This document shows positions 5,670-52,901 of a stretch of 64,000 bases of DNA, one piece after another (the stretch's first letter is position 1; each line of letters opens with the position of its first letter). The notes beneath the pieces were generated by a model. The model was not told the origin of the DNA, ran no database searches, and worked only from the letters and a program-made list of their open reading frames with translations. The DNA is from an uncultured bacterium. GTDB lineage: Bacteria; Oederibacteriota; Oederibacteriia; Oederibacteriales; Oederibacteriaceae. A program made the position numbers and the translations under genes. Location: contig OZ218778.1 in NCBI GenBank assembly GCA_965112635.1, positions 243,666 through 307,665 on the forward strand, written 5' to 3'.

Positions 5670-5948
5670 TCATTTATATATTTCTCTTCTGTGCCCAATA
5701 TCAATAATAATGACCAACAGCACATCGGATTTGATCATATAAATGATCCGATAACTCCCTACCCGGTAGGAATACTGACCTTTTAAATCCCCATGAAGGG
5801 GCTTGCCCAGATACGGTTCCCTTTCCAGGCCGTGAAGAGCATTGCTGATCCTTTCATAAAGCGGCCTGTCTCGTTTTGCAAGCTTCTTATAAAATTTTTC
5901 TGCATCTTCCTGCAGGACAACAGTGTATTTATTCAATTTCTTTTTCAA
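5670..5948 (-). CDS. type II toxin, RelE/ParE family
   Basis: 92-aa ORF, RelE/ParE-like C-terminus (YRIIYMIKSDVLLVIIIDIGHRREIYK); overlaps upstream antitoxin gene by 20 nt; AT-rich relative to neighbours. Confidence 0.85.
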   Translation of the reverse strand: MKKKLNKYTVVLQEDAEKFYKKLAKRDRPLYERISNALHGLEREPYLGKPLHGDLKGQYSYRVGSYRIIYMIKSDVLLVIIIDIGHRREIYK

Positions 5949-6195
5949 TCTCCTCTAATGGACGCACCTTGCCTTTCTTCACATTTTCCAGTCCCGCTTT
6001 AATTCTTTTCATGGCACTGCGGTCATTCAAAATATCAAGGGTTTCCATCAAGGATTCATAATCCTCATAGCTCATAATTTCAGCCACAGGTTTGCCGTGG
6101 TTCGTGACCGTGACCCTTTCCAATTTATGGTCTATCTTCTTAAGAACGCCGGGCAAGGTTTGCCTCAATTCCCTGACGCTCAAAACATTATTCAT
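5929..6195 (-). CDS. type II antitoxin, Phd/YefM family
   Basis: MNNVLSVRELRQ N-terminus typical of Phd/YefM; GGAGG RBS 8 nt upstream of ATG at 6195. Confidence 0.85.
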   Translation of the reverse strand: MNNVLSVRELRQTLPGVLKKIDHKLERVTVTNHGKPVAEIMSYEDYESLMETLDILNDRSAMKRIKAGLENVKKGKVRPLEEIEKEIE

Positions 6196-6256
6196 CTGCA
6201 ACACCTCCTCATTATGAAAATTTTATGTTAAGTATAGCAGGAAAAGGGTTAATTTG

Positions 6257-6429: not shown

Positions 6430-7479
6430 TTAGCAGATCCTCGGCAGTTGGTCTCCGCTGAGCATGTCCAGGATCCTTCTCACGCCGATTTTGCTCTCCA
6501 GCGTGACCTGGCCCTTGGCGGCATCCAAAACCTTTCCCACCACAGCCGCTTCTTTACCAAGAGGATGGGCCCTCATCAAGTTAAGGGCTTTTTTCTCGTC
6601 TTTTTCCGGCACAAACAAGGCAAACCTGCCCTCATTGGCCACATACAAGGGATCCAGCCCCAGCATTTCACAGGCCGCCTGCACTTGATTGTTTACTGGG
6701 ATGGCCTTTTCTTCCAGGGCTATTTCCCTGCCAGAGGCCTGGGCTATCTCCACCATTGTCGTAGCCAATCCGCCCCGGGTCAGGTCGCGCAAACAATGGA
6801 CCTCGACCTCGGCCTTTAAGAGCTCCAGCACCAGGCCGGACAAGGGAGCGCAGTCGCTCTGGATGGTGGTTTCAAAATTCAACCCTTCCCGGCTGGCCAT
6901 GATGGCCATGCCGTGCCTGCCCAAATCTCCGTTGATGAGGATCTTGTCTCCGGGTTTGATGCTTTTGGGATGGATAACCAGCTTGTGGTCTATGGCTCCC
7001 ACCCCGGCGGTATTGATATACACGCCGTCCCCCTTGCCTTTGTCCACCACTTTGGTGTCACCGGTCACGACCTGCACTCCGGCCTCTTCGGCTGTTTTGG
7101 CCAGGGACTGGACGATTTGCCACAAGGTTTCCATGGCCAAACCTTCTTCCAATATAAAGGAAGCGGAAAGATAGAGCGGCCTGGCCCCGCACATGGCCAG
7201 ATCATTGACCGTGCCGCACACAGCCAGCTTGCCTATATCCCCGCCGGGGAAAAATAAAGGTTTGACCACGAATGAGTCCGAAGTGAAGGCCAGTTTTTCC
7301 CGTGTCGTGGGGAACACCGCGCTGTCGTGCCCTGCTCCAGGCAGGTCATTTTTAAAGGCGGGCAAAAACATTTTTTCGATGAGCTGGTGCATGAGTTTGC
7401 CGCCGCTGCCGTGGCCCAGGGTCACGACCGGATATTGGGCTATGGGGATGGGGCAGGTCAGATTAAATTCTTTAGGCAT
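6430..7479 (-). CDS. hypE: hydrogenase maturation carbamoyl dehydratase HypE
   Basis: HypE-like sequence ending in the characteristic C-terminal PRIC; AAGGAG RBS before ATG at 7479. Confidence 0.9.
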
Positions 7480-7501
7480 AAATATGCTCCTTAAAAATTG
7501 T

Positions 7502-7572
7502 GTCCAAAGTCTCAAGTCCAATGTCCAAAGTTTTTGTGTAACTTTGAACTTTAAACTTTGAACTCGGAACTA
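7502..7572. repeat. hypD-hypE intercistronic repeats (GTCCAAAGT x2, AACTTTGAAC x3) able to form stem-loops
   Basis: read directly in the 105-nt gap between hypD stop and hypE start. Confidence 0.4.
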
Positions 7573-7584: not shown

Positions 7585-8670
7585 TCAATGCTTCCTATAG
7601 TTGTAATAAGCTGCGCAGGCGCCCTCAGGCGACACCATCGGCGCACCCAGCGGCGTTTCCGGAGTGCAACGCGTGGCAAAAGCCGTGCATTCCTTGGGTT
7701 TTTTGATGCCCTGCAGGACCAGACCGCTGATACACTCGGGGTCTTCGCTCACCGCCAGGTCTTGGAGGTCAAACTTTTTTTCCGCGTCATAGGCCGCATA
7801 CTGGGGCCGCAGACCTAGGCCGCTCAAGGGGATCTCTCCGATACCGCGCCATTTGCGCGGTACGATCTGAAAAACTTCCTTGATGAGTGTCTGGGCAGGT
7901 AGATTGCCCTGCCTCTGGACACTGCGGGTATATTGATTCTCCACTTTGGCTTCGCCTTTTTCCAGTTGAGCGATGCATAGATACAGCCCCTCTAAAATAT
8001 CCACTGGTTCGAACCCCGTGACCACGATGGGAACTTTGAATTTCGCCGCCAGCGGTTCATACTCGGTATAACCCATGACCGTGCACACATGGCCCGCGGC
8101 CAGGAAGCCGTTGATCCTTTGGTTCGGGGAACTCAGGATCGCCTCCATGGCCGGCGGCACCAACACATGAGAGACCAGAATGGAAAAGTTCTTTATCCCC
8201 TGTTCCTTGGCCTGGAAAACCGCCATGGCATTGGCCGGCGCCGTAGTCTCAAACCCCACGGCAAAAAACACCACCTGTTTCCCTGGGTTTTCCCGGGCCA
8301 GCTGGAGACAATCCAGGGGTGAATACACCATGCGCACATCCCCGCCCTGGGCCTTGGCCAACAACAGGTTCTCTTTGGTCCCGGGCACGCGCATCATATC
8401 GCCGAAAGAGCAAAAGATGATGTCAGGCCGATGGGCCAGCTGGATGGCCTTATCGATGAGCTCGACGGGTGTCACGCACACCGGACATCCCGGGCCGTGG
8501 ATCAGGGTGATCCCCTTGGGCAACAGCTCATCCACTCCGTACTTGACGATGGAATGCGTCTGTCCGCCGCACAGTTCCATGATGTTCCAGGGCTTGGTGG
8601 TTATCTTCTGGATAAGTCCGGCGATATGGCGGGCTTGTTCCGGGTCACGGTATTCGTCGATAAATTTCAA
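7585..8670 (-). CDS. hypD: hydrogenase maturation factor HypD
   Basis: 361-aa ORF with HypD motifs (CGGQTHS, GPGCPVC); apparent TTG start overlapping the hypC stop. Confidence 0.9.
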
Positions 8671-9304: not shown

Positions 9305-10229
9305 ATGTTCCCCTCCAAAGTCTATCTATTCATTTTCACACTGCTCCTATTATCCTTGACCAATCAGGGCCTGTGCCATGTGATACCCACTACTCCTAAT
9401 GATGACTGGAATCCAGTTTCCACCGGCCCCATCAACACCTGGACCGCTTCCCTGGAACCCGCCGGGGAACTTAACACTCAGCTCTTTGTTTTTTACACCA
9501 TGACCACGGGATTTTATGACGGGGCGGGAAAGTTCTGGTCATTGCCGGATAACACCACCAAGACCCAGTTCCAGGAGCAGCTGTTCCTCCAATATGCTAT
9601 CAACCCTATGTTTGAAATGGATGCCCAACTTTCCACTTTTCAAAATACGCTCAAGGTCGGCGACCAGACTTCCTATTATAGTGGCCCGGGTGACTCGATC
9701 TTCTTTTTGCGTTATGCCATCGCCACCGAAACTCATCCTTACCCCTTCCTGACCGGCGTACTCCAGCTCAGGGTTCCCTCGGGCAATTTTCTTAACCAAA
9801 CCTCCACCCTAAGGACTTCTGATCTCACCGGCACGGGAAGCGTGGGCAGTGGGTATGGGGTTGATGGCCACCAAAAAACTCAAACCATTCTTGCTGCATA
9901 CCGACCTCATCTACAATGTACCCTTACAGACCCAGACCAATATCACTTCTATTAACTACGGCGACTCCGTGAATTATGACCTGGGTGCCGAATACTTTAT
10001 GTCCTACGGATTTAACCTGTCCATGGAGATGAATTATATCTACGAGGCCACTGGCAGTATTTATGGCTTATTCACTCCCGGCGTTTCGGGTAACTACCTC
10101 ATGCTGACCCCGGGACTAGGCTGGGCCGTAAAAAATACCCAGTTACTACTCGGCTATCAATGGGGACTCTATGGCGTCAACACCGATGCCCTAAGTTCCT
10201 ATGTCTTTACCGCCTCGGCTCCGTTCTAA
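9305..10229 (+). pseudogene. putative outer-membrane beta-barrel protein, reading frame broken at an A6 run near 9874-9879
   Basis: signal peptide MFPSKVYLFIFTLLLLSLTNQG, C-terminal aromatic residue; two overlapping ORFs (9305-9955, 9849-10229) rejoin if A6 is read as A5. Confidence 0.5.
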
Positions 10230-10267: not shown

Positions 10268-10684
10268 ATGGCAGGTTTAGTAAGATTTGGCGTATCCCTG
10301 GAAAAAGAACTTCTCAAAAAATTTGATCGACTTATCACCCAAAAACACTACACCAACCGCTCCGAAGCCCTGCGCGACCTCATCCGGGAAGAATTGGTCA
10401 AAGAACAATGGAACCAGGGAGACGAAGTGGCCGGCGCCATTACCCTGATCTACAACCACCACCATAGAGACCTGACCGATAAATTGACTAACATTCAACA
10501 TGATTATGGAGACTGCATCCTGTCTTCCCAGCACATCCACCTAGACCACCACCACTGCCTGGAGATCATCGCGGTCAAAGGGTCCCCCAGCCAGGCGCAA
10601 AAACTGGCCGACACCCTCCACGCGGTTAAAGGAGTCATGCATTCCAGCCTCAGCATGTCCACCACCGGCAAAGAAATACATTAA
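10268..10684 (+). CDS. nikR: nickel-responsive transcriptional regulator NikR
   Basis: 138-aa ORF: ribbon-helix-helix N-terminus (RFGVSLEKELLKKFD) plus His/Cys-rich C-terminal domain (HHHRD, HLDHHHC). Confidence 0.9.
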   Translation: MAGLVRFGVSLEKELLKKFDRLITQKHYTNRSEALRDLIREELVKEQWNQGDEVAGAITLIYNHHHRDLTDKLTNIQHDYGDCILSSQHIHLDHHHCLEIIAVKGSPSQAQKLADTLHAVKGVMHSSLSMSTTGKEIH

Positions 10685-10816
10685 ACCGTATTTTCACTCG
10701 TAACTCCCAGTCCATATCTCCTCAAAAATAATGACCCTCAAACTCTTGACAGACCTACTCCTATGTGTTACTTTTCCAAAATTCGTGTTACTAATTATAC
10801 AAGAGGAGGATTTAAG

Positions 10817-13009
10817 ATGATGAAAAGCAATAAAACCAGGTTTTCCTTGGTCGGTTTTATTTTTTGTTCGCTATTGTTGTCCAACCCTAGCTGGGGGCAG
10901 GATGGCGCCAACAGCACCCTGGATGCATTGCGTCATGACAGCAGCCCTGCGGCAGTTACTAAGAGCGCTATACCTGTAAGTGTGACCAAGACCGCTGCAA
11001 CGGAGTCAACCGTGGCCGGTGAAGAAGTAGTGGTTAGAGGCAGGGCTGCCAACTTGCTGGGACTGGCAGACTCGGCCATGCAGGGCAGTGTCAGCCAGGA
11101 AGACCTGAGCCACCGTGCTTTGCTCAGGACGGGAGAAGTTATGGAAGCCGTACCCGGACTGCTCATCACACAGCACAGTGGTGACGGCAAAGCCAACCAG
11201 TATTTCAGCCGAGGTTTTAATCTTGATCACGGCACTGATTTTTCATTCAATGCTGATGATGTTCCTATTAACCTGCCCAGCAATGCCCATGGTCAAGGCT
11301 ATACAGACCTTAATTTCCTCATTCCCGATCTGGTTAAGGAAGTGAACTATTCCAAAGGACTTAATAGCGTTGAATACGGGGAATTTAATACCGCAGGCTC
11401 AGCCAATTTTGTTTATCCCAATACTCTGCCCCAAAATATCGCTTCTCTGACCATGGGAGAATGGGGATATCAGAGAGGGCTTTTGGCCGCATCCAACCCC
11501 TTGGGGTCAGGGAATTTGTTGTACGCCGTGGAAGTTTGCGGTTATGACGGTCCCTGGGATGTCCCGGAAGATAATAAAAAATATAATGGATTGCTTCGCT
11601 ACAGTTATGGAAACTCAGAGAGCAGGTGGGCGATCACGGCATCCCTTTATCAGGCTGCCTGGACCTCCACTGACCAGGTCCCGCAACGAGCGGTGGACGA
11701 GGGTCTGATCGATTTCTGGGGCAGCCTTGATCCGACTGATGGCGGTAAGACAAAACGCTACAGCGTTTGGGCAAGCTGGAATGGCCAATCCCAGGACTGC
11801 CAGTCCATGGTCATGGCCTATGAAACCTATTTTCATATGAATCTTTGGAGCAACTTCACCTATTTTACTGACGATCCTGTTCACGGCGACCAGTTTGAAC
11901 AGGAAGATGAGCGGTATATCACCGGCGCTAAAGCCAGGCAGATATACAACAACACTATCGCCGGGCTGGCCATGAAAAATGAGATCGGCGCGGATTTCCG
12001 CAATGATGACGTGCCCATCCTGGGCCTTTACGATACGGAGGCTCATATTCCGTGGCAAACCGTCCAGCTTAACCAGATGGTCCAAACCAGCGGAGCTCCC
12101 TATGCGGAAAATACCACTTATTGGACACCATGGCTGAGAAGTATTTTGGGATACCGTCACGACTTCTTCCATTTCAAAGTTAACGGTGCTACTCCTGCTA
12201 CCAGCGGAGAGGCTGATGCCAACATAGCCGAACCTAAGGTAGCCCTGGTGCTGCGGCCTTATGAAGGGCCGGTGGAGCTGTACGCCAACTATGGCTGGGG
12301 TTTTCACTCCAATGACGCGCGTATCATTGCGCCGGATGCTTTAAATCAGTTAAGCATTATGGGCAACAATGTGAACACCGCTCCCCTGGTCCACGCGGAG
12401 GGAGAAGAAGTAGGCGCCCGTTTCGGCTGGCAGAATTTATTTGAATCCACGGTATCTTTATGGCGCCTGCATCTGGATTCTGAATTGACTTTTGACGGAG
12501 ACGCGGCCGCTCCCAGTCCCAATGGGCCTTCTACGCGTAATGGGGTGGAATGGTCCAATTCCTTGAGGCCTAAACCCTTTTTCCTGGATTTCGACTACTC
12601 CTGGTGCCAGGCGCGGTTTGATCAGACTGCGTTAGATGATGATGGAGAGCACCCGGGTGAGTATGTGCCGGAGGCTCCGGTAAACATGGCTACAGCCACT
12701 TTAGGCACTGATCCCATAGAAGGCTGGTCTGCGGACTGTCGTTTGCGTTACTTTGGGGCAAGGCCGCTGGTACCGGATAATTCGGTGCAATCCAGCGACC
12801 TGACACTGGTAAGTCTTCGTGTCAGCCGTCAGCTGACGGAAAATCAATCCATTTTCTTCGATATTTTTAATCTTTTTAACCAGCGGGGTTATGATATTTC
12901 TTATTATTACGCCACAAGCGTACAGTCGGGAGCCCCGTCGATCCCGGACATAAACAGTAAACCCGCTGAGCCGCGGTCTTTGCGTGTGACCTGGCAGGAC
13001 CGTTTCTAA
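10817..13009 (+). CDS. TonB-dependent outer-membrane receptor, probably nickel/metal uptake by context
   Basis: signal peptide, plug-domain-like region, ~700-aa barrel ending in F; GAGGAGG RBS before ATG at 10817 (track ORF starts at 10763). Confidence 0.85.
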   Translation: MMKSNKTRFSLVGFIFCSLLLSNPSWGQDGANSTLDALRHDSSPAAVTKSAIPVSVTKTAATESTVAGEEVVVRGRAANLLGLADSAMQGSVSQEDLSHRALLRTGEVMEAVPGLLITQHSGDGKANQYFSRGFNLDHGTDFSFNADDVPINLPSNAHGQGYTDLNFLIPDLVKEVNYSKGLNSVEYGEFNTAGSANFVYPNTLPQNIASLTMGEWGYQRGLLAASNPLGSGNLLYAVEVCGYDGPWDVPEDNKKYNGLLRYSYGNSESRWAITASLYQAAWTSTDQVPQRAVDEGLIDFWGSLDPTDGGKTKRYSVWASWNGQSQDCQSMVMAYETYFHMNLWSNFTYFTDDPVHGDQFEQEDERYITGAKARQIYNNTIAGLAMKNEIGADFRNDDVPILGLYDTEAHIPWQTVQLNQMVQTSGAPYAENTTYWTPWLRSILGYRHDFFHFKVNGATPATSGEADANIAEPKVALVLRPYEGPVELYANYGWGFHSNDARIIAPDALNQLSIMGNNVNTAPLVHAEGEEVGARFGWQNLFESTVSLWRLHLDSELTFDGDAAAPSPNGPSTRNGVEWSNSLRPKPFFLDFDYSWCQARFDQTALDDDGEHPGEYVPEAPVNMATATLGTDPIEGWSADCRLRYFGARPLVPDNSVQSSDLTLVSLRVSRQLTENQSIFFDIFNLFNQRGYDISYYYATSVQSGAPSIPDINSKPAEPRSLRVTWQDRF

Positions 13010-13037: not shown

Positions 13038-13661
13038 ATGCAGACTATTTTGCAAAACTTGGCTCTGATCGGGGACGTCTGGGTCATCTACCTTTTGATC
13101 GCCGCAAGCCTGCTTTCTTTGGCGGTCATGGTGGAAAGATGGATGGTCTTCTCGCGTAACAGGGGAGATGTCACGGTTCTAATGGACGGATTAGGCGAAC
13201 GCCTGGAAAAAAAGGATATCAAGGGGGCTCTGGAATTTACCCGTGGTTTTCCCAATGTGGAGGGCAGGGTTGCCGTGGCGGGACTGGAGCATTTTTCCAA
13301 AGGCGCGGCTTCCGTGGAAGAGGCCATGTCCGCCAGGATCATCCGAGAGCGGAAGCATTTGGGGAAAAAACTGATCATCCTCAGCACGCTGGGCAATAAC
13401 GCGCCCTTTATCGGGTTGTTCGGGACCGTGCTCGGTATCATCAAAGCGTTCAACGACCTTGCGGTCAGCGGAAGCTCGGGGGTGTCCGTGGTCATGGCCG
13501 GCATTTCCTCGGCTCTGATCGCCACGGCATTCGGCATCGCGGTGGCTGTCCCCGCCGTCATAGCCAATAATTATTTCCGCAACCGGCTCAACGAGGTCAG
13601 ATCCAACGCCGAAGAGGTGTCCAAAATGCTTTTGCTTTACATCAAAGCGCAGGGAAAGTAG
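13038..13661 (+). CDS. exbB: MotA/TolQ/ExbB proton channel protein
   Basis: 207-aa membrane protein with ExbB/TolQ-like TM helices; AGGAGG RBS. Confidence 0.85.
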   Translation: MQTILQNLALIGDVWVIYLLIAASLLSLAVMVERWMVFSRNRGDVTVLMDGLGERLEKKDIKGALEFTRGFPNVEGRVAVAGLEHFSKGAASVEEAMSARIIRERKHLGKKLIILSTLGNNAPFIGLFGTVLGIIKAFNDLAVSGSSGVSVVMAGISSALIATAFGIAVAVPAVIANNYFRNRLNEVRSNAEEVSKMLLLYIKAQGK

Positions 13662-13670: not shown

Positions 13671-14069
13671 GTGCAAAACTCTGAAGACGAACAGGAAATA
13701 GTCGGCGGCATCAATATCACGCCCATGGTGGATATCACCCTGGTACTGTTGATCATTTTCATGGTCACGGCGACCTTTATGGCGCAATCAGGCCTGAAAG
13801 TGAACCTTCCCAAGGCGGTCACTACCGAAGCGGCTTTCACCGCCAGCCTGACCGTAACCCTGGATTCCAAGGGTTATCTCTATCTGATGAAGTCACCCAT
13901 AGATGAGAAAGGTCTCAGGGCTGCCCTGCAGCACGAAGTCAGGCTCAATCCCGGCGTGAAAGTTACCATTGCCGCAGACAAGAAACAATATTATGAGCAG
14001 GTCATCCATATCCTGGACCTGGTCAAGCAGGCGGGTATCAGTAAAGTGGCGCTAGCCGCGGAAAGGTAG
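13671..14069 (+). CDS. exbD: ExbD/TolR biopolymer transport protein
   Basis: 132-aa ORF, single TM then periplasmic domain; GTG start with GGAGGA RBS. Confidence 0.85.
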   Translation: MQNSEDEQEIVGGINITPMVDITLVLLIIFMVTATFMAQSGLKVNLPKAVTTEAAFTASLTVTLDSKGYLYLMKSPIDEKGLRAALQHEVRLNPGVKVTIAADKKQYYEQVIHILDLVKQAGISKVALAAER

Positions 14070-14075: not shown

Positions 14076-14684
14076 TTGTTTTCTGTTTCCGGTGTGAATG
14101 GTGGGTGGCAGGACCCTGGAAGAAAAGATTTTTATCTGGGCGCCGTGGTGTCATTGGCCGTGCATCTGGCGCTGCTTGCCATTTTTTACTGTTTATTTTC
14201 CTACCTGAAGAACAGCGCGCCTGTGTCCATGGACCTGGACCTTTCCGTGGCCCCTGCTGTGGTTCCCTTGAGCCGTCCCGTGAAAAAAGAACATGTGGTT
14301 CCGCCCCAAGCCTGGGTGGCGCCTAAAGCTGGGATAGCTCCGACACCCCAAAATGTAAGTGAAACCGCCCAGCCGGTGGAAGAACAATATGTGCCCTCAG
14401 CCGTTACAGCGCTCAAGCCCCGCTGGTTAGACGGGTTTATTACCGATGAGGACTACCCGCCGCAGGCGCGGAGCAAAGGGGAAAAGGGAACGGTCAAGGC
14501 GGAAGTTTTTATTGATGCCTCAGGTATGGTCAAGGATCTGAAAATAGTCCAGGAAAGTTATCCTGCCTTGAATGAGGTGGTTTTGCACAAATTAAAGGAT
14601 GCCAAGTTTACGCCAGCCCGTGATGCCTCGGGAAAACCTGTGCCCTGCAAGATGTTGCTGCCCATTAAATTTGAATTGTATTAA
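14076..14684 (+). CDS. tonB: energy transducer TonB
   Basis: N-terminal TM, Pro-rich linker, TonB-like C-terminal domain; TTG/GTG start, exact start uncertain. Confidence 0.7.
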   Translation: MFSVSGVNGGWQDPGRKDFYLGAVVSLAVHLALLAIFYCLFSYLKNSAPVSMDLDLSVAPAVVPLSRPVKKEHVVPPQAWVAPKAGIAPTPQNVSETAQPVEEQYVPSAVTALKPRWLDGFITDEDYPPQARSKGEKGTVKAEVFIDASGMVKDLKIVQESYPALNEVVLHKLKDAKFTPARDASGKPVPCKMLLPIKFELY

Positions 14685-14766: not shown

Positions 14767-15786
14767 ATGCACATTCCTGACGGATATTTAGGACCGACCA
14801 CCTGCGGATTTTTTTATGTGGTCATGGTGCCGATCTGGATGACCGCTTCCCGCATGGTCAAAAAGACCCTCAAGGCCGGTCAGATCCCTTTTCTGGCCAT
14901 TGGCGCGGCTTTTAGCTTTGTCATTATGATGTTCAATGTCCCCATCCCCGCTGGCTCTACCGGCCACGCGGTAGGCGGCGCCTTGATCGCCATCCTGCTC
15001 GGACCCTGGGGCGCCTGTCTGACCGTTTCCGTAGCCTTGGTCATCCAGGCCTTTTTGTTCGGAGATGGCGGCCTGACCGCCATCGGCGCCAACTGCTTTA
15101 ATATGGCCGTCGTACTGCCCTTTTCTGCGTACCTTATTTACCGGCTCTTGTCCGGCTCCGCCCAAAAAAGTCCGACCAGAAATGTCTGGGCCGCGGGTAT
15201 CGCCGGCTACCTTTCCATCAATATCGCCGCTCTGTGCGCCGGTGTGGAGTTCGGCTTACAGCCTTTGCTCTACCATACCGCGGATGGACAGGCTCTTTAC
15301 TGCCCGTTCGGCTTGAGCGTTGCAGTGCCGGCCATGCTGGGCGGACACTTGCTGGTTTTTGGGTGGATAGAAGGCTTGGTCACCGCTCTGCTGGTCAAAT
15401 ATCTCCAACAGCACTCTCCTGAAATGCTCGCTCGCCCCGCCCTAAAAACTTCCACCAAATTATGGGCCTGTCTTGGCATCCTTGCGGTGCTGACCCCGTT
15501 AGGACTGCTCATCCCCGCCTGGCTCCACGGAGGAGACGCCTGGGGTGAGTGGGCGCCTGAAGAAATACAAAAAATCGCCGGCTATGTTCCCCAGGGCCTG
15601 CAAAAACTTTCCGCGCTCTGGAATGCCCCTTTGGCTGACTATGGTTTTAAAAGCTGGGAAGGAAAAGGATTGGGATACTCAAGCCTAGCCTATATAATAT
15701 CAGCCGTTCTAGGCGCAGCCCTGATCGCTTTTTGCGTCTGGTTATTGTTCAAATATCTCTTCCGGAAAGGCTTTTCCAAAAAATGA
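14767..15786 (+). CDS. nikMN: ECF-type Ni/Co transporter substrate-capture protein, fused NikMN (CbiMN-like)
   Basis: starts MHIPDGYL (CbiM/NikM hallmark); 339 aa with extra C-terminal TM region consistent with an N-component fusion. Confidence 0.85.
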   Translation: MHIPDGYLGPTTCGFFYVVMVPIWMTASRMVKKTLKAGQIPFLAIGAAFSFVIMMFNVPIPAGSTGHAVGGALIAILLGPWGACLTVSVALVIQAFLFGDGGLTAIGANCFNMAVVLPFSAYLIYRLLSGSAQKSPTRNVWAAGIAGYLSINIAALCAGVEFGLQPLLYHTADGQALYCPFGLSVAVPAMLGGHLLVFGWIEGLVTALLVKYLQQHSPEMLARPALKTSTKLWACLGILAVLTPLGLLIPAWLHGGDAWGEWAPEEIQKIAGYVPQGLQKLSALWNAPLADYGFKSWEGKGLGYSSLAYIISAVLGAALIAFCVWLLFKYLFRKGFSKK

Positions 15787-16589
15787 ATTTTGTGGAACGC
15801 ACTATCCTGGCTGCTCTTTCCCTGCTGAAAAATTCCATGTTCGCCGAGGATATCGCCCGCCAAAAAGGGCTCTTACAAACACTGGACCCACGGGTCAAGG
15901 CTGTTTCTTTGCTGGCCTTGATCGTGCTGGTCCTGTTCACCAAAAACTTATGGGTACTGGCTTGTATTTATGGTCTATGTCTGGTCCTGGCTATGCTATC
16001 GAGGATCCGCCTGCTGTTTTTCCTGGAGCGCACCTGGATCTTTATCCCCCTGTTTTCCCTGCTCATCGCCATACCTGCTCTTTTTAGTTTTGTATCACCG
16101 GGCCGGCCTTTGTTCTCCTGGGGGATATGGACCATCACCAGCCAGGGATTAGGCAGCGCCGTCATCTTTATCAGCCGCGTCATCACCTCGGTGTCCCTAG
16201 CCGTGCTTTTGAACCTGACCACCCGTCACCTGGAACTGCTCAAGGTCCTTAGGATATTCGGGATCCCGCAAATGTTCGTCATGATCCTGTCCATGAGCTA
16301 CCGTTATATTTTTCTTTTTGTGGAGATCATGGAAAACACCCACCGGGCCGTGCAGAGCCGCGTCGGCTCGGCCATTCATTATAAAAAAGGTCAGCACCTG
16401 GTGGCCTGGAGCATGGCTGGCCTGTGGAGCCGTTCAGTCGGCCTGCAGGAACAGGTGCACCACGCCATGCTCTCCCGCGGATTTCAAGGCGAGCCGGTCC
16501 TCCTGCACCGCATGAGCACAAGGTTCAGGGACTGGGCCTGGCTGGCCTGCGTTCTCGTCCTGGTAGTCTGTTTGTGGGGAGCGTCCTGA
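15783..16589 (+). CDS. nikQ: ECF transporter transmembrane (T) component NikQ/CbiQ
   Basis: polytopic membrane protein; ATG overlaps nikMN stop (ATGA). Confidence 0.8.
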   Translation: MNFVERTILAALSLLKNSMFAEDIARQKGLLQTLDPRVKAVSLLALIVLVLFTKNLWVLACIYGLCLVLAMLSRIRLLFFLERTWIFIPLFSLLIAIPALFSFVSPGRPLFSWGIWTITSQGLGSAVIFISRVITSVSLAVLLNLTTRHLELLKVLRIFGIPQMFVMILSMSYRYIFLFVEIMENTHRAVQSRVGSAIHYKKGQHLVAWSMAGLWSRSVGLQEQVHHAMLSRGFQGEPVLLHRMSTRFRDWAWLACVLVLVVCLWGAS

Positions 16590-17401
16590 TGAAACCTATC
16601 TTTGAGTTTCAAAAAGTCAGCTATGCTTACCTGGGTAAATTCCCGGCCCTGCGGGACATCACTCTAACTATCCCGGCTGGAAAAATGGTCACCCTGGTCG
16701 GCGCCAACGGTTCGGGCAAATCCACGCTCCTGCAGATGATGGACGGTCTTTTGTTCCCGGACAGCGGGACCATAGTTTTTGATGGCAGACAGCTGGCCAG
16801 CGCTGAACTGGAAAAACAGGACTTTTCCAAGACCTTTAGACAAAAGGTAGGACTGGTCTTCCAGAACCCCGACATCCAGCTTTTTTGTCCTACGGTCCGC
16901 GAGGATATTATTTTTGGTCCGCTCCAGCTGGGGATAGACGAAAAAATAGTGATGAACCGATTGGAAGAGTTGGCCGTAGCCCTTAAACTCACGCCTCTCC
17001 TGGACCGTGCCCCGCATCAGTTGAGCATCGGCGAAAAACGCAAGGTGGCCATAGCCTCCACCCTGGCCATAGACCCTGAGGTTTTGCTTTTGGATGAACC
17101 CACAGCCGGCCTGGACCCCATGACCACGGCTTCCATCCTGGAGATCCTGCTCACAGCCAATCAGTCAGGCAAGACCATTATTACAGCCACCCACGACCTG
17201 CATATTTTAGAGGAGATCGCGGACACAGTGTTCGTTTTCGGGCAGGATAAGACCATCGTCGCGGAAAGCACCCCCGAATCCATACTCAAGGATACGGACC
17301 TCCTGCAAGCGAACAACCTGGTGCATTTTCATCCGCACAGCCATAAAGGCAGGATGCACCAGCATCCCCACCAGCACCCGGACCACCACGAAGGAAGCTA
17401 A
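16589..17401 (+). CDS. nikO: ECF transporter ATPase NikO/CbiO with His-rich C-terminal tail
   Basis: Walker A GANGSGKST, signature LSIGEKRK, Walker B LLLDEPTAGLD; tail HFHPHSHKGRMHQHPHQHPDHHEGS; start overlaps nikQ stop. Confidence 0.85.
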   Translation: MKPIFEFQKVSYAYLGKFPALRDITLTIPAGKMVTLVGANGSGKSTLLQMMDGLLFPDSGTIVFDGRQLASAELEKQDFSKTFRQKVGLVFQNPDIQLFCPTVREDIIFGPLQLGIDEKIVMNRLEELAVALKLTPLLDRAPHQLSIGEKRKVAIASTLAIDPEVLLLDEPTAGLDPMTTASILEILLTANQSGKTIITATHDLHILEEIADTVFVFGQDKTIVAESTPESILKDTDLLQANNLVHFHPHSHKGRMHQHPHQHPDHHEGS

Positions 17402-17423: not shown

Positions 17424-17816
17424 TTATCTAAGCTGTTCTATCCGCTTTTTCAGCTCATTGAATACATCCTGGAAGCTTTGCCTTTGTTCTTCCTGGGTCA
17501 GGCCCGGCCTGGCCGGGTCAGGCAAGCCCCAATGTATCCTCTTGGCCTTGCCCAAAAATACCGGGCATTCCTCCTCCGCGCACAGGGTTATGACCGTATC
17601 CACCGTGGCGGGGTCTATCTCCTTCACGGATTTGGAGCGTTGTTGGGATAGGTCGATGCCAGCCTCCTGGGCAACTTGGATGGCCAGTGGATGGACCCGT
17701 GAAGGCTTGGACCCGGCGCTTTGCACCATGACCTCGGGCCCCAAGATATGCCTGGCCAATCCTTCAGCCATCTGGCTGCGCGCCGAATTGCCCACGCAAA
17801 GGAAAAGTATCTTCAT
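17424..17816 (-). CDS. arsC: arsenate reductase, LMW-PTP/thioredoxin-coupled type
   Basis: 130-aa ORF with CVGNSARS P-loop. Confidence 0.85.
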
Positions 17817-18874
17817 GGCTTCCCTTCCTTAAAATAGGCCCTCTTGAAATACAACGCCACATTGACCAGGCTGATCAAGACCGGCACCTCGACCAAGGGG
17901 CCGATGACCGCGGTAAAGGCCACTGCCGAACCAATGCCGAACACGGCCACCGCTACCGCGATGGCCAGCTCAAAATTGTTGCTGGCCGCGGTAAAAGACA
18001 ATGAAGCGGTCTGGGCGTAACCGGCCTTGAATTTTCTGCCCAGGTAAAAGGAGATAAAGAACATCACCACAAAATAGACCAGGAGCGGCATGGCGATACG
18101 CAGGACATCCAGCGGAATGCGGACTATGGTCCCTCCCCTGAGCGAAAACATCACGACGATCGTAAAGAGCAAAGCAATGAGCATGATAGGACTGATACGG
18201 GGAATGAATTTATTTTGGTACCACTCTTTGCCTTTGGCCCGGATCAGGAAGATGCGCGTGAACAACCCGGCCAGGAAAGGGATACCGAGATAGATAAAAA
18301 CGCTCTTGGCGATCTGTGCGATGGTCACGGGTACCGCGGCTCCGGCCAGGCCAAACCATCTCGGCAGGACCGTGATAAAGACCCAGGCAAATACGGAAAA
18401 AAACAGGACCTGGAATATGGAGTTAAAAGCCACCAGCCCGGCGCAGTATTCGCTGTCCCCGCAGGCCAGCTCGTTCCAGACAATGACCATGGCAATGCAC
18501 CGGGCCAGTCCTATCAGGATGAGGCCGATCATGTATTCGGGGTAGTGGCGCAGGAACAGGACAGCCAGGCTGAACATCAGGATAGGCCCAATGACCCAGT
18601 TGAGAACAAGGGACAGGATCAGGACCTTGATATTTTTGAACACATCTCCCAGTTCCTCGTATTTGACCTTGGCCAATGGCGGGTACATCATCAGGATAAG
18701 CCCGATGGCTATGGGAATATTTGTCGTACCCGAGGAAAAGCCGTTGACCAGAGATGAAATGCCCGAATAAAAATATCCTATGCCCACGCCCATCCCCATA
18801 GCCAGAAATATCCACAGGGTTAAATAACGGTCCAGGAAGGAAAGTTTTTTAAGAAGACTATTTGGGGGTTTCAT
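17813..18874 (-). CDS. acr3: ACR3-family arsenite efflux permease
   Basis: 353-aa polytopic membrane protein of ACR3 size and pattern; stop overlaps arsC start. Confidence 0.8.
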
Positions 18875-39456: not shown

Positions 39457-40878
39457 CTATTTCCCCTGGTTTTTGGGGCCTCGGTGCTGGCTGTGGCTGA
39501 AACTATGACCTTGCCCCTGACCGTAGTGGCTCTGGGGCCTGTGGCTATCTCCGTGGTGGCCCTGGGGCCTGGAGTGGTGCGGATGGTGGGGATGGCCTCC
39601 TCCTAGATAGCCGGTAGGCGGTTTTTCATTATAGTCAAAGTCGGGCAGGAGCACGGCCGGCAGTTTTTTGTTCACCAGTTTCTCGATATCCCGAAGCATC
39701 AGGTTGTCCTGGGGTGTGACAAATATAAAAGCGTCGCCTTCGGTATCTTTGCGGGCGGTCCGGCCGATACGATGGATATAATCCTCGGCGGCCTGCGGCA
39801 CATCGTAGTTGATGACATGAGTGATGTCCGTGAAATCAATACCCCGGGCCGCAATATCGGTCGCGACCAGGACCCTGATATCGCCCTTTTTGAAACGATG
39901 GAGCACTTCCCGGCGGTGGGTCTGGCTCTTGTCGCCGTGGATGACCTCGGAATCCACCCCGTGCCGCCTGAGCTTTTGCACCAGGGAGTCCGCCGAATGC
40001 TTGCTCCGGACAAAGACCAGGACCGAGTAGAGCGCCTGCTGTTCCAGCAGTTTGATCAGGAGCTTGGTCTTGAGATGCCGCTCCACCGGGAACATGGCCT
40101 GGCGGATGCCGCTGGGCGGGGCCTCCCGGCCCACCCGCACGGTCACCGGGTCTTTGAGGACCACATGGGTCAGTTCTATGATCTCCTGCGGCATGGTGGC
40201 TGAGTAGAGCAGGGTCTGCCTTTTGGCCGGGACATAGCTCAGGATGCGCTTGATATCCGGCATGAATCCCATGTCCAGCATCCGGTCCGCCTCGTCCAGC
40301 ACCAAAACCTCCAGATTGTTGAACTTCGCGTACCCCCGGCGCAGGTGGTCCATAAGCCGGCCCGGTGTGGCCGCGATGATGTCAAAACCGGTGCGCAAGG
40401 CGTTCTCCTGGGCATCAAAACCCACCCCGCCGTAGACCGCCGCGCACCGAATCTTGGTGTGGTAACCTAAGGCCGTAGCCTGCTCATCTATCTGGGCAGC
40501 CAGCTCCCGGGTGGGCGTCAGGATGAGGACCCGGATGCCTGTCCCGCGGTTGTGCAGGATGCGGTGCATCAGGGGGATGAGGAACGCCGCGGTCTTGCCT
40601 GTGCCGGTCTGGGCCGTGGCGATGAGGTCATGGCCTTTTAAAACCTCAGGGATGGCCTGTTCCTGGACAGGCGTTGGTCGGGTATATCCCATATCTTTGA
40701 TGCCGCGGAGCAGGTCTGGATGCAGGTTAAATTTAGCGAAAATGGGCGTTTCCCCCTTTTCATAGATTAAATATCTCTCCAAGTATAGCCTTTTAATCTG
40801 CCTATAACTATCAAATATTGCGGAAGCGGCTGTCTTCTTTATTTGGTGCCGGATTGTTATAATTACTCCGCTGGTCAT
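39457..40878 (-). CDS. DEAD-box ATP-dependent RNA helicase with His/Gly/Gln-rich C-terminal tail
   Basis: Q-motif PTPVQ, Walker A AQTGTGKT, DEAD, SAT, HRIGRTAR; true start probably downstream of 40878. Confidence 0.85.
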   Translation of the reverse strand: MTSGVIITIRHQIKKTAASAIFDSYRQIKRLYLERYLIYEKGETPIFAKFNLHPDLLRGIKDMGYTRPTPVQEQAIPEVLKGHDLIATAQTGTGKTAAFLIPLMHRILHNRGTGIRVLILTPTRELAAQIDEQATALGYHTKIRCAAVYGGVGFDAQENALRTGFDIIAATPGRLMDHLRRGYAKFNNLEVLVLDEADRMLDMGFMPDIKRILSYVPAKRQTLLYSATMPQEIIELTHVVLKDPVTVRVGREAPPSGIRQAMFPVERHLKTKLLIKLLEQQALYSVLVFVRSKHSADSLVQKLRRHGVDSEVIHGDKSQTHRREVLHRFKKGDIRVLVATDIAARGIDFTDITHVINYDVPQAAEDYIHRIGRTARKDTEGDAFIFVTPQDNLMLRDIEKLVNKKLPAVLLPDFDYNEKPPTGYLGGGHPHHPHHSRPQGHHGDSHRPQSHYGQGQGHSFSHSQHRGPKNQGK

Positions 40879-42453: not shown

Positions 42454-42849
42454 CTAGACACAGACTGTTTCCCCAATACCCAGCAGGTCTTTGACCTGAT
42501 CGATAAAACTCCTATTATCTATGGGCTTGGAAATATAGGAGTCAAACCCGGCTGCCCATATCTTTTCCTGTTCGTCTCTCATAGCCAGGGCAGTCAGGGC
42601 CACGACCTTCACGCCCGCGGTCCTTTGCTCACCCCGGATCCGCTTAAAAATGGTAAAGCCGTCCACCTCCGGCAGATTGATATCCAGCAGGACGAGGTCG
42701 GGGACACAGCTTTCCAGCACCCGGAAGCACTCCTCCGCGTTGAACGCCTTCAGCACCCTGAGCCCCTGCATTTCCAGCAGGGCCTCGGCAAGCCTCATAT
42801 TCGCTTCATCATCCTCTACCATCAATACTGTTTTGCTTTGCGTGAACAT
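42454..42849 (-). CDS. single-domain response regulator (receiver only)
   Basis: 131-aa CheY-like receiver (LMVEDDE, LLDINLPEVDG, YISKP). Confidence 0.8.
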   Translation of the reverse strand: MFTQSKTVLMVEDDEANMRLAEALLEMQGLRVLKAFNAEECFRVLESCVPDLVLLDINLPEVDGFTIFKRIRGEQRTAGVKVVALTALAMRDEQEKIWAAGFDSYISKPIDNRSFIDQVKDLLGIGETVCV

Positions 42850-45022
42850 GAACTCCTCCTTGTAGGATCAAAATTCTTTCCGCAGTTTCCGTGCCGCAAA
42901 CTTCTCCCGGTGCCGGCTGCGGCCTGACTGCGCTGAGATCCGGTAAAGCTAAATAAAACCGGGAACCCTTGTCTTTGCCCTTGCTCTCGCACCACAACCG
43001 GCCTTTCTGCATATCCGCTATTTTCTTGGAAAGCGCCAGGCCCAGCCCCGTGCCTCCATACTGGCGGTTGAGGCCGCCCTGGACCTGTTCAAATTCATTA
43101 AATATCCTGAGCTTGTCTTTTTCTTCGATACCGATGCCCGTATCCTCAACGCAGATGCTTATCTCCCCGTTGTTTCCGCCCGCGGTCAGGCGGATCTCCC
43201 CGCCTTCCGGGGTGAATTTGACCGCGTTGGAGAGCAGGTTATTGACCACCTGCTTTATCATGCGTTCATCCGCATAAACAACGCCCGCTTCCCTGGCCAC
43301 CTGCAAAGAAACTTTGATCCTCTTTTTCTGGATCTTATCCGTCACCATCATCAGACTGGACTCCAGGAGCTTTCTGAGATCCACCTCGCTCGCCTCCGAG
43401 GTCACTTTGCCGGTCTCTATCTTGTTCAGGTCCAGAATATCGTTGATCAGGGAAAGCAGATGCTTGCCGCTATCGTAGATATTTAGGGCATACTCGGACT
43501 GCTTAGCGGTCAGCGGCCCGACATCGCCCGACTTCATCATGTCCGAAAACCCGATGATGGCATTAAGGGGAGTTCGTAATTCATGGGACATCGTGGCCAG
43601 GAAAGCCGACTTGGCCCGGTTGGCGGATTCGGCCGTTTCACGGCCCAGATTGGCCTCTTCAATTTTTTTGCTCAAGGTGATATCCCTGACCGTGGCCTGC
43701 AGGAATTGCTTACCCTCCAGTTCCATGCGGGTCAGAAGTACGGTAGCGGGGAAATCCTCGCCGTTTATCCGTTTGTGTGTCCACTCAAATAGGTTATTTC
43801 CCTCCCGCATCGCTTTTTCGATCATTTCCTTGGCCTTTTCGCCGGATGGCCGGCCGTCCGGCTGTTTTTCCGGGGATAACTTACCCGGTCTGTAGGAATT
43901 AAAATCCTTTGAGTCCTTTGCTCCGAACATCCTGACCGTTTCCGGATTTCCTGAGGTGAAATTCCAGTCAGGCGGCTTCAGGGTCATCAGGGCGTCGCTG
44001 GAATATTCAAATAGATAACGGTATCTTTCTTCGCTTTTTCTCAGGGATTCTTCCATGGTTCGGCGGGAGGTGGCGTCACGGAATATCCCCATCATATACT
44101 GCTTGCCTTCCAGTTCGATTTGGTGGGAACTGATATCCGCGTAAATAAGGGAGCCATCCTTTCGTTTAAAAGGCACATCTGTTTCCATCAAAACCTGGTT
44201 TTTGGGGCCTTTATCAAATCTTTCCGCGGCACTCCCAAAAGCCTGGGGAGGATGGATATCCCTGACGCCCATGCGAGTCAATTCCTCATGCCCGTAGGCC
44301 AGGAGTTGGCCCATGCTCTGGTTCGCGTCAAATATTTTCATGGTTTGGGGGTCCACCAGCATGATGCCGTCCGAGGCATGGTCAAAAATGGCCTTGAACT
44401 TGCCTTCCCCCAGGCTCAAGGCTTTGCTGGTCCTGTTCCGCTCGGTGAGGACCATCCTTTGGGCGATAAGAAAACCAATAAAGACGAAGAACCCGACCAC
44501 CCCAAAGACATTGTTCCGGGCCTGGATGTTTTTTTGCATCGTGGAAACGAACAGCGACCTGATAGTGTTCCTCAAGGTGAAAGCATTTTTGAATACTTCA
44601 TCGGCCTGCCGGGGACCCGGTTGTTCCAAAGTCCCTGGGGTGGCTGCGCCATATTGGACCGGCGTATCCTGGATCCACAGGGGGGACATACCGGACAGGG
44701 TGGCCTCAAAGTTTTTTTGGACTTTTTGCAGGAGCGCCTTGTCCTGGGCGCTGGTAAAACTTTTGAGGGCTGTAGCCAGCAGGCCCTCTAAAGTGCTGGT
44801 TTTTTTATCCCACTCGGTTTTTAGTTGCTGGCTGGGATACAGCAGGTACCTGGCCCTCAGGACGATCCTGGCCGAAACCGTGTTGCTCATTTCATCGGCG
44901 AGCTGGAGGTTCCGGCTGGCCAGGGTAATATCCCTCAGGGTCCAGGCCAGGGCCAGGAGCATGAGCACGACCCCTCCCGCATATATCCATCCATTGTCTT
45001 TCATCCATTTATCCATCCTCAT
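42809..45022 (-). CDS. membrane-anchored PAS sensor histidine kinase
   Basis: N-terminal TM, PAS domains, H-box SHELRTPLNAI, HATPase motifs. Confidence 0.8.
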   Translation of the reverse strand: MRMDKWMKDNGWIYAGGVVLMLLALAWTLRDITLASRNLQLADEMSNTVSARIVLRARYLLYPSQQLKTEWDKKTSTLEGLLATALKSFTSAQDKALLQKVQKNFEATLSGMSPLWIQDTPVQYGAATPGTLEQPGPRQADEVFKNAFTLRNTIRSLFVSTMQKNIQARNNVFGVVGFFVFIGFLIAQRMVLTERNRTSKALSLGEGKFKAIFDHASDGIMLVDPQTMKIFDANQSMGQLLAYGHEELTRMGVRDIHPPQAFGSAAERFDKGPKNQVLMETDVPFKRKDGSLIYADISSHQIELEGKQYMMGIFRDATSRRTMEESLRKSEERYRYLFEYSSDALMTLKPPDWNFTSGNPETVRMFGAKDSKDFNSYRPGKLSPEKQPDGRPSGEKAKEMIEKAMREGNNLFEWTHKRINGEDFPATVLLTRMELEGKQFLQATVRDITLSKKIEEANLGRETAESANRAKSAFLATMSHELRTPLNAIIGFSDMMKSGDVGPLTAKQSEYALNIYDSGKHLLSLINDILDLNKIETGKVTSEASEVDLRKLLESSLMMVTDKIQKKRIKVSLQVAREAGVVYADERMIKQVVNNLLSNAVKFTPEGGEIRLTAGGNNGEISICVEDTGIGIEEKDKLRIFNEFEQVQGGLNRQYGGTGLGLALSKKIADMQKGRLWCESKGKDKGSRFYLALPDLSAVRPQPAPGEVCGTETAERILILQGGVHVHAKQNSIDGRG

Positions 45023-45065
45023 ATTCCTGTCCCCCTTCCCAAAATAGCCATGACCCTTTGATGCA

Positions 45066-46631
45066 TCATTGGAATTCTTCCTTACCGGCCATCACCATCT
45101 GGAAGGCCTTGGCCTCTTCCCGGCGGCCTAAAGAAATCAGCGGTTTAACAAAGGAAAAAATGGTCTTTTTTTCACTGGCCGCAGCCAGGGGCAGGCTAAA
45201 ACTTATGGAATTGTCCCCCTTGGAGGGAAAATCCACCTTGATTTCGCCCTGATGCGACTCCACGATCCTCTTGGCTATGGCCAGCCCCAGGCCTATGCCC
45301 GGGATATCGCCCGCGCCCTCTTTGTCCACCTGATAAAAAGTGTCAAAGATCTTCTGCCGTTCCTCGCAGGGTATGCCGGGGCCGTTATCGCCCACAGAGA
45401 ACCTGACCAGGCCTTGCTCCTGCCTGGCCGTGAAAGTGAGCTTGACTATCTTTTGGTCGTTGAATTTCACGGCGTTCTCAATGAGGTTGCTCAACAGTAT
45501 CTCCAGCATCACCGGGCTGAGCCGCAGCCCCACCATGCTGCCCGGCAGGTCGAATGTGTATTCGATCTCTTTATCCGTATGCTTTTTGAGGATGGCCTTC
45601 ACGATTCCCTCTATCCGGTCCATATACACAGAGCCCTCTCCGACACCTTTGCCCCCGTAACGGGCCGCCGTGTCCACATTGACAAAATCCGTTATTTTTT
45701 CCATCACCTTTGAAAACTCGGCCAATCTTTTCATCGTGGCCTCTGCGGAGTCCCTGAGCCGGGTATTTTTCATGGCCACAAAGGCCTCTTTCATCTGGGC
45801 CAAATGGCCCAGGCTCAGGTTCAGGGGAGCATGCACTTTTTGGGCGATAAGGTTGAGAAAATTTGCTTTCCGGTGCTTTTCTCCCCTCTGTTCCGTCACG
45901 TCATGCAAAATGATGACCACGCTGGTTGTCCTGCCCTGGCTGTCCCTGATCACCCTGGAACTGAAACTAAGTATCAGCGGCCAGTAGGTGGGGAACTCGG
46001 GCCGCTCCAGGTCAAAATCAAGGTCGTCAATGACCAGGTCGGTCTTCAGCTCGCCTTCATAATGGACCTTAAAGGTCTGGTGCAGGCGGTCCAGCCAGTC
46101 CGGGGACGGCTCCACAAAGCTCAGCAGCTCCCGGGCCAGCTGGTTGGACCGGACGATCCTCAGGTCCGCGTCGCAGACGATCAACCCTTCACTGGCCCGC
46201 TCAATGACCTTTTCCAGCTTTTTCTTTTCATCCACCCGGGAGCGTTCATTGTGGAGCTGGAGGAGCGTCTTGACCTTGGCCAGCACTTCATTGATATCAA
46301 AAGGCTTGGAAATAAAATCATCGCATCCCGCCTCTATCCCGGAGATCCGGGCGCTGGTTTCGGCCAGCGCCGTGATCATCACCACGGGCAGCGTCTTAGT
46401 GCTTTCCGCGGCCCGGATCTTCCGCGTCACCTCGAAACCATCCATATCCGGCATCATCACGTCCAGCAGGACCAGGTCTATTTTTTCATAGGTGAGTTTC
46501 CTTAGGGCCTGCCCCCCGTTTTCCGCGGTGACGACCTCGTAACCCTTGGACTTGAACAAAGTGGCCAGGAGCTCCACATTAAGGGGCTCGTCGTCCACCA
46601 CCAAAATCGTGGTTTTTTCAACTATATTCAT
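45066..46631 (-). CDS. receiver-PAS-histidine-kinase-like fusion protein
   Basis: N-terminal receiver (ILVVDDEP, LLDVMMPDMDG), central PAS, C-terminal HATPase-like domain; ATG 46631 overlaps upstream stop (ATGA). Confidence 0.75.
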   Translation of the reverse strand: MNIVEKTTILVVDDEPLNVELLATLFKSKGYEVVTAENGGQALRKLTYEKIDLVLLDVMMPDMDGFEVTRKIRAAESTKTLPVVMITALAETSARISGIEAGCDDFISKPFDINEVLAKVKTLLQLHNERSRVDEKKKLEKVIERASEGLIVCDADLRIVRSNQLARELLSFVEPSPDWLDRLHQTFKVHYEGELKTDLVIDDLDFDLERPEFPTYWPLILSFSSRVIRDSQGRTTSVVIILHDVTEQRGEKHRKANFLNLIAQKVHAPLNLSLGHLAQMKEAFVAMKNTRLRDSAEATMKRLAEFSKVMEKITDFVNVDTAARYGGKGVGEGSVYMDRIEGIVKAILKKHTDKEIEYTFDLPGSMVGLRLSPVMLEILLSNLIENAVKFNDQKIVKLTFTARQEQGLVRFSVGDNGPGIPCEERQKIFDTFYQVDKEGAGDIPGIGLGLAIAKRIVESHQGEIKVDFPSKGDNSISFSLPLAAASEKKTIFSFVKPLISLGRREEAKAFQMVMAGKEEFQ

Positions 46632-51081: not shown

Positions 51082-51094
51082 TTTTTCCTGCGTC

Positions 51095-52895: not shown

Positions 52896-52901
52896 TTTCT
52901 A

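Follow-up and report, generated by a model that had tools for sequence, protein, structure and literature searches.

The subject of this analysis was the C-terminal tail of NikO, the energy-coupling factor (ECF)-type ATP-binding cassette (ABC) ATPase of a predicted nickel importer. The gene lies in a 64,000-nucleotide stretch of DNA from an uncultured bacterium of the Oederibacteriota (contig OZ218778.1, forward-strand positions 243,666 to 307,665); the whole stretch is called the window, and coordinates are numbered from its first base. The nikO gene occupies positions 16589..17401 (+) and encodes 270 residues plus a stop codon. Its start was assigned to the ATG at 16589, which overlaps the stop codon of nikQ (TGATG); a program-made open reading frame (ORF) beginning with GTG at 16424 was over-extended, and the ATG was preferred. 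The 270-residue product was 100% identical to an NCBI/ENA protein record (P0001) and agreed with the public gene call.

The segment from 17324 to 17398 (+) translates in frame with nikO as HFHPHSHKGRMHQHPHQHPDHHEGS and is followed by a stop codon at 17399-17401. A sequence-only reading of the window had reported a His-rich tail with 11 histidines in the last ~25 residues of NikO; the tail is real, being both in frame and the densest in His among the window ORFs, but the last 25 residues contain 10 histidines rather than 11. The entire protein has 13 histidines, and only three of them fall within the first 245 residues. When all non-overlapping ORFs of the window were ranked by the maximum number of histidines in any 25-residue stretch, the NikO tail was first with 10, a DEAD-box helicase was second with nine, and NikR was third with six. 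Because the next-highest ORF after the two tails had only six, the enrichment in the NikO tail is far beyond background. The same reading had named an undetected frameshift as one event that would undo the observation; this was excluded, because the two other reading frames in the tail region were closed or not His-rich and hundreds of homologues carried the tail in frame.

The boundary residues N243-L244-V245 (17315..17323, +) precede the tail; N243 and L244 were invariant, and relatives lacking the tail stop directly after them. The first His strand, H246-x-H248-x-H250-x-H252 (HFHPHSH; 17324..17344, +), contains four histidines that were invariant in 66/66 aligned homologues. It is joined by the four-residue connector K253-G-R-M256 (17345..17356, +) to the second His strand, H257-x-H259-P260-H261-x-H263 (HQHPHQH; 17357..17377, +), in which H257, H259, and H261 were invariant and P260 and H263 were at least 90% conserved. 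The protein then ends with PD-HH-EGS (17378..17398, +), whose paired histidines H266 and H267 were also at least 90% conserved. L239 was likewise invariant in the 66-sequence alignment, and the conservation of the tail columns was comparable to that of the Walker A residues. As read from these alignments, the tail is a conserved module of the form NL-x-HxHxHxH-x4-HxH(P)HxH-xx-HH, with two short alternating-His putative strands joined by a four-residue turn.

Every one of the 120 best database homologues (60-65% identity, 268-292 residues) ended in this same pattern, for example NNLVHIHSHRHKDKIHVHPHLHLDHH. In the pooled sequence sets, the strict eight-His pattern was present in 241 distinct C-termini, and the connector was exactly four residues long in 237 of them; the residues following the motif varied in length, mostly from 5 to 10. 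Across the clade the module had from eight to eleven histidines. When representatives of 50%-identity clusters were searched exhaustively, most matches were fused double ATPases, which outscored single domains and left nine informative single-domain relatives; all nine of those listed (45-54% identity) had kept the motif, either as HxHxHxH-x(3-5)-HxHxHxH or in a seven-His version. The motif was found in 80/80 genome loci, which came from Omnitrophota, Elusimicrobiota, Thermodesulfobacteriota (Smithella), Nitrospirota, Chlorobiaceae, Planctomycetales, Fibrobacterota, and others. It was also present in a divergent metagenomic 'WHEH' variant group (HRHAHEDYWHEHEHEH), in the cultured Thermomicrobium roseum DSM 5159 (WP_041437335.1), and in most relatives from Chloroflexota, so that motif-bearing relatives spanned more than 10 phyla. 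The homologue alignment that the sequence-only reading had proposed thus gave a clear answer: the tail is neither generic nor lineage-specific, but a motif of fixed geometry common to a broad NikO clade.

The codons used for the conserved histidines were examined in 120 distinct DNA sequences. At each of the eight positions CAT and CAC were used at approximately 50:50, and therefore selection has acted on the amino acid and not on the DNA. Such strong selection on the tail is as expected of a functional site, and we consider it very probable that the tail is a conserved functional module. Conserved His positions together with codon variation refuted the opposite reading, in which the tail has no function and is a chance low-complexity end, a lineage-specific expansion, a frameshift, or a sequencing artefact. 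The helicase in the same window does show that idiosyncratic His-rich tails arise. Against this stand histidines that do not vary in hundreds of sequences drawn from more than 10 phyla although synonymous sites are saturated, an identical protein in public records, and alternative frames that are closed or not His-rich; the chance that the tail is without function is negligible.

In a rough neighbour-joining tree that was built from the ABC core without bootstrap, the tail-bearing sequences fell in a single clade. L161 and the group L135/L147/L153, relatives that lack the tail, were nested within that clade, which implies that they have lost it secondarily. These proteins ended exactly with NL[LIM] and a stop codon, and no His-rich reading frame was found when the DNA downstream of their stops was searched. 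Judged from these natural endings, the boundary of the motif is sharp and lies immediately after the invariant N-L. The nesting of natural tail-less relatives within the clade also makes the module an accessory that lies outside the catalytic core, as a regulator would be expected to.

All NikM N-termini captured beside a tail-bearing NikO read MHIPDGY; we take an MHIPDG N-terminus to mark the nickel (NikM) rather than the cobalt S component, and the small sample here agrees. The motif was absent from three CbiO proteins in cobalt contexts, namely those of a Thiodictyon cobalamin-biosynthesis (cob) cluster, Calothrix, and Rhodococcus (CbiM MHIAEG). By this comparison of gene neighbourhoods, the motif is a mark of one large nickel-associated NikO clade.

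Several relatives carried additional sequence after the motif. In P0239, an HMA metal-binding domain was fused directly behind it (PF00403, E 1.3e-8, above the Pfam cut-off). P0138 and P0228 continued with another His-rich stretch and an uncharacterised helical extension of ~100 residues (WIEHxxxHAxxYxEWAxKA...), for which Pfam had no match. These additions are a further sign of metal handling by this part of the protein, and the tail, as a strictly conserved motif of eight histidines, probably binds a transition metal inside the cell.

The loci of the relatives also differed in their gene content. In several Omnitrophota loci only nikQ and nikO stood next to each other, and the 7 kb upstream contained no nikM. 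A small cupin-like gene followed nikO in L017 (6195-8145). In two other loci (L139:2921-3718 and L142:3590-4375) the gene directly downstream of nikO encoded a His-rich membrane protein with ...GGLIPCPAAIA, resembling Ni/Co transporters of the RcnA/NicO type; in this arrangement a putative exporter would be encoded next to an importer.

The assignment of the window protein to NikO was examined with profiles, motifs, and genomic context. The protein matched ECF_ATPase_2 (TIGR04521; E 2e-70), the cbiO subfamily (E 1e-56), and PF00005 ABC_tran (E 3e-31, residues 21-173). Its TIGR04521 score was 237 bits against an equivalog cut-off of 330, and the assignment is thus at the family level only. The sequence contains the Walker A motif GANGSGKST, the signature motif LSIGEK, and the Walker B motif LLLDEP. 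ECF ATPases have a Q-helix motif, X-P-D/E-X-Q-Phi, located after the Q-loop (PMC6828968), and in NikO it was found as FQ-NPDIQL-F.

Genes for the T and S components (CbiQ and CbiM+PDGLE) lie directly upstream of nikO, with overlapping stop and start codons. The nikQ gene (15783..16589, +) encodes a T component of 268 residues, as in the public gene call, and matched TIGR02454 CbiQ above the cut-off (E 7e-44). It is preceded by a nikMN fusion (14767..15786, +) encoding an S component with the N-terminus MHIPDGYLGP and a NikN-like C-terminal PDGLE, which matched CbiM (E 1e-61) and NF005598 (413 bits). Farther upstream are tonB (14076-14684, +), with TonB_C matches in Pfam and NCBIfam, and exbD (13671-14069, +) and exbB (13038-13661, +), which were assigned by ORF translation and position. 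These are preceded by a gene for a TonB-dependent outer-membrane receptor (10817..13009, +) that matched Plug in Pfam and TonB-dependent receptor models in NCBIfam; the ORF extends back to 10763, with a probable start at the ATG at 10817, downstream of the ribosome-binding site GAGGAGG. First in the series is nikR (10268..10684, +), which encodes a nickel-responsive repressor of 138 residues (Pfam NikR_C, E 6e-30, plus RHH_1). All of the genes from nikQ to nikR are on the same strand, and nikQ, nikMN, tonB, exbD, exbB, and the receptor gene are set apart by short gaps or overlaps. Beside this cluster are two hydrogenase-maturation genes, hypE (6430-7521, -) and hypD (7585-8670, -).

An Rfam scan of the whole window gave no matches of any family at gathering thresholds, and thus no B12 riboswitch; a cobalt assignment consequently lacks a riboswitch argument. 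Linkage to nikR, the adjacent hypD and hypE, the missing Rfam match, and an MHIPDG N-terminus with fused PDGLE all agree in pointing to a NikM(N)QO system. The sequence-only reading had taken the protein for a nickel-importer ATPase; these features, the matches to ECF ATPase profiles, and the neighbouring CbiQ and CbiM genes support that view, and from its genomic context the assignment to NikM(N)QO is well supported.

A search was also made for the delta-proteobacterial NikR box, whose half-site is GTGTTAC (PMC545781), using the pattern GTGTTAC-N13/14-GTAACAC with up to three mismatches. One match, GTGTTAC-N13-GTGTTAC, was found at 10765..10791 (+) in the nikR-receptor intergenic region, just 3' of a TTGACA hexamer resembling a -35 element. 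Its half-sites are direct, not inverted as usual, and the match was not significant, with at least one match occurring in 71/100 shuffled sequences; it may be a NikR operator.

Other observations at the cluster concern its extent. With the receptor, exbB, exbD, and tonB joined into it, the nik cluster is predicted from its genes to be a complete outer-to-inner-membrane nickel uptake unit; a similar receptor adjoined nikMNQO in just 1/80 related genome loci (L062). Just upstream of nikR is a 216-residue ORF (9305-9955, +) that has no Pfam match and whose N-terminus resembles a signal peptide. On the other side, arsC (thioredoxin-type arsenate reductase; 17424-17816, -) and acr3 (17813-18874, -) converge on nikO, with 22 bp between the stops.

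The closest solved structure to NikO was R. capsulatus CbiO (PDB 5x3x chain A; E 5e-52), which aligned over residues 1-238 only, and the matches to the ECF ATPase profiles ended at residues 241-246. In R. capsulatus CbiO and in EcfA, the remaining sequence forms a two-helix C-terminal domain that has been proposed to hold the ATPase dimer together without ATP and to be regulatory; this domain, found in every group II ATPase and in a part of group I, is not obligatory for group I (PMC6828968). In NikO the last 25 residues are instead the His motif and were not helical in an AlphaFold2 model, so no two-helix dimerisation domain was recognized. From these alignment end points, the His motif is seen to occupy the position of the two-helix C-terminal domain of other ECF ATPases. 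The tail alone gave nothing meaningful against PDB sequences, Pfam, or NCBIfam, and no Pfam or NCBIfam model covered it.

The AlphaFold2 prediction was made for the NikO monomer with the 66-sequence alignment. The predicted local distance difference test (pLDDT) score was >90 in the core and <50 for residues 247-270. This low score in the tail fits a fold that might depend on a metal or a partner, yet is no positive evidence for one.

NikO resembles the group I ATPases of CbiMNQO and NikMNQO (PDB 5x3x) in its ABC core and Q-helix motif, and in its association with CbiQ-type T and CbiM-type S components. The difference is at the C-terminus, where R. capsulatus CbiO has ~45 further residues as the two-helix domain and the window NikO has the 25-residue His motif.

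Accessory C-terminal domains with a regulatory role are known from other importers. In MetN and in M. acetivorans ModC, such a domain binds the substrate of the transporter in the cytoplasm and keeps the ATPase dimer from closing, which stops transport; A. fulgidus ModC lacks the domain (PMC4245157). Like the C-terminal domains of MetN (C2), M. acetivorans ModC, and MalK, the NikO tail is an accessory at the C-terminus of a nucleotide-binding domain, would be paired in the dimer, and is absent from some orthologues. The MetN and ModC domains, however, are folded, substrate-binding units of ~100 residues, whereas the NikO tail is a 25-residue His motif of low AlphaFold2 confidence with no sequence or fold kinship to them. 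With its empty profile and PDB searches and a pLDDT of <50, the tail gave no sign of a MetN C2 domain or of a ModC/MalK beta-sandwich. It falls outside the MetN/ModC families of regulatory domains, and the likeness to them that we propose is a functional analogy only.

His-rich segments are also found in UreE, HypB, SlyD, CooJ, Hpn, the RcnA loop, NrsD, and CbiX-long, which share with the NikO tail a high His density on the cytoplasmic side and presumed Ni(II) binding. The His-rich expansion of RcnA is variable in length and composition (PMC11247825). The NikO tail has the high terminal His density of the nickel metallochaperones (10/25), but not the low positional conservation and variable length of their tails; its length, spacing, and Pro are fixed across phyla, and theirs vary. 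The N-terminal HMA domains of P1B-type ATPases are likewise cytosolic metal-binding modules on metal-transport ATPases, and P0239 has such a domain after its His motif; in the P1B-type ATPases, however, it has a ferredoxin-like fold with CxxC and belongs to exporters of a different ATPase class.

The tail is best read as a cytoplasmic Ni(II)-binding module, and, by analogy with MetN and M. acetivorans ModC, its likeliest role is that of a feedback brake or sensor. In the mechanism that we propose, the alternating H-x-H-x-H-x-H of the two segments, together with the turn, would set eight imidazoles on one face, and the tails of the two subunits would meet beneath the nucleotide-binding domains of the NikO2 dimer on its cytoplasmic side. 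There the imidazoles would form defined Ni(II) sites, possibly shared between both NikO subunits. A rise in cytoplasmic nickel would load the paired tails and restrain the ATPase cycle in a feedback resembling trans-inhibition, and this brake would act faster than repression by the NikR encoded in the same cluster. That feedback or sensing is the main role of the tail seems to us possible, at somewhat less than an even chance. A conserved NikO module serving as a post-translational nickel sensor or brake is the best explanation overall, and we hold it with the same tentativeness. The more specific version, in which Ni(II) bridges the two NikO tails and locks the ATPase dimer, is more doubtful; under that version, substrate sensing by a regulatory element would be seen here for the first time in an ABC importer of the ECF type (type III).

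Several results weigh against a nickel-sensing brake. At 25 residues, the module is far below the ~100 residues of the MetN/ModC regulatory domains, and it has no detectable homology to them. AlphaFold2 gave the tail only a weak hairpin (residues 250-252 with 255-257, pLDDT <50), and the conserved Pro within the second 'strand' (HPH) is atypical of a regular beta-strand. The motif was also absent from two haloarchaeal ATPases adjoining nikR, which, like the three cobalt-context CbiO proteins described above, have a longer, non-His C-terminus instead. The tail has moreover been lost or has decayed repeatedly, with at least two losses in the tree and decayed remnants in 20/120 Chloroflexota relatives (e.g., ...ANLIYESRRPVRVS), and thus many organisms manage without it. 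The present evidence, drawn from comparisons of sequences, would moreover appear to fit inhibition, activation, hand-off, and buffering alike. Two stronger claims were rejected outright: that the tail is universal to nickel importers was ruled out by the NikR-linked haloarchaeal systems without the motif, and that it is essential was ruled out by the natural truncations and decayed tails.

The dispensability of the tail in some lineages would also suit a role in metal hand-off, in which the tail is an acceptor or buffer: it would take up Ni(II) coming out of the transporter, hold it, and deliver it to metallochaperones of the HypA/HypB type, without regulating transport. The tail would then be akin to the His-rich regions of UreE, HypB, SlyD, CooJ, or the CbiX-long C-terminus. 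Storage or delivery has commonly been proposed for the His-rich segments of nickel and cobalt proteins such as CbiX-long, NrsD, and UreH, the nik cluster lies beside hypD and hypE, and the HMA fusion in P0239 fits a metal relay as well as it fits a sensor. Even among close relatives, however, the storage and delivery tails of nickel chaperones differ in length and in composition, whereas the eight histidines, the Pro, and the four-residue connector of NikO are fixed across phyla, which points to a defined site and not a sponge; one tail of 25 residues would also have a small capacity. On balance we regard hand-off or buffering as unlikely, though it deserves serious consideration.

The fixed geometry of the motif would equally suit a structural metal site, and the motif begins exactly where the two-helix C-terminal domain of CbiO and EcfA begins. 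The tail could therefore be a constitutive Zn or Ni clasp that bridges the two NikO subunits in place of the helical dimerisation domain, with no sensing. Close relatives that end in ...NL without any C-terminal domain, and the decayed tails among the Chloroflexota, show nevertheless that the ATPase needs no clasp. Structural Zn sites usually include Cys, and all-His ligand sets are unusual for them; a clasp is thus distinctly improbable. A role without metal, either as a pH-sensitive switch or as a docking peptide for a protein or the membrane, is less probable still and can be given only a slight chance. The pKa of His is near 6-7, so that titration of the imidazoles could make the tail charge-switchable, and AlphaFold2 predicted disorder. 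HxH repeats, however, are classic arrangements of transition-metal ligands, the motif was found exclusively with nickel-type S components, and an HMA domain has been fused at the same site.

The protein itself is an ordinary member of the ECF ATPase/NikO family; it is the motif that appears to be undescribed. Full-text searches brought up no account of such a motif for either NikO or CbiO; a mention in the founding NikMNQO paper (Rodionov 2006) is possible. The nearest literature concerned the His-rich regions of RcnA, CbiX-long, NrsD, and UreH, not NikO. The reviews that mention both trans-inhibition and ECF transporters were not seen to report trans-inhibition for an importer of the ECF type. 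Transport ATPases with appended metal-binding or regulatory segments are already known, and the tail would be a further feature of this type.

NikR or riboswitches are usually taken to account for the regulation of ECF transporters that import metals, and to our knowledge the post-translational control of these transporters is essentially unexplored. A small, invariant, all-His module offers an easily mutated handle on whether cytoplasmic nickel directly throttles nickel import; alternatively, it could reveal how imported nickel passes to chaperones. If the nickel-bridged tails proposed above are real, metal importers would possess a built-in trans-inhibition switch that parallels those of MetNI and ModBC and is made from a metal-dependent fold of 25 residues. 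The fixed HxHxHxH-turn-HxHPHxH unit may also merit attention as a natural Ni-binding fold of minimal size. In annotation, the motif can serve as a practical marker of the nickel-associated clade of CbiO/NikO ATPases; earlier comparative genomics did not resolve the CbiO/NikO subunit, unlike the other subunits, into nickel and cobalt branches (PMC2667541).

The second His-rich tail in the window belongs to the RhlE-type DEAD-box helicase at 39457-40878 (-), which ends with ...GGGHPHHPHHSRPQGHHGDSHRPQSHYGQGQGHSFSHSQHRGPKNQGK. The sequence-only reading had described this end as rich in His, Gly, and Gln, correctly so: the tail is rich in His, Gly, Gln, and Ser, with 12 histidines in the last 50 residues. 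The parallel drawn there to the NikO tail proved superficial, as the helicase tail is not conserved among homologues. The best 120 homologues of the helicase had tails that were variable in length and mostly rich in Arg, Gly, and Lys, and only 2/120, the window's own protein included, had at least 10 histidines in the last 50 residues. By these comparisons the helicase tail is an ordinary, fast-evolving, low-complexity tail, presumably disordered, and provides an internal contrast to the NikO motif. The public gene call for the helicase is 441 residues against 473 for the longest ORF, with the start 32 codons further downstream.

Two other regions of the window were noted. In the list of ORFs, positions 42454-57698 (-) contain a dense run of ORFs resembling response regulators and histidine kinases, several of them large and multi-domain. 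At 5670-6204 (-), between a glycosyltransferase gene and hypE, two small overlapping ORFs of 92 and 91 residues have an arrangement like that of a toxin-antitoxin pair.

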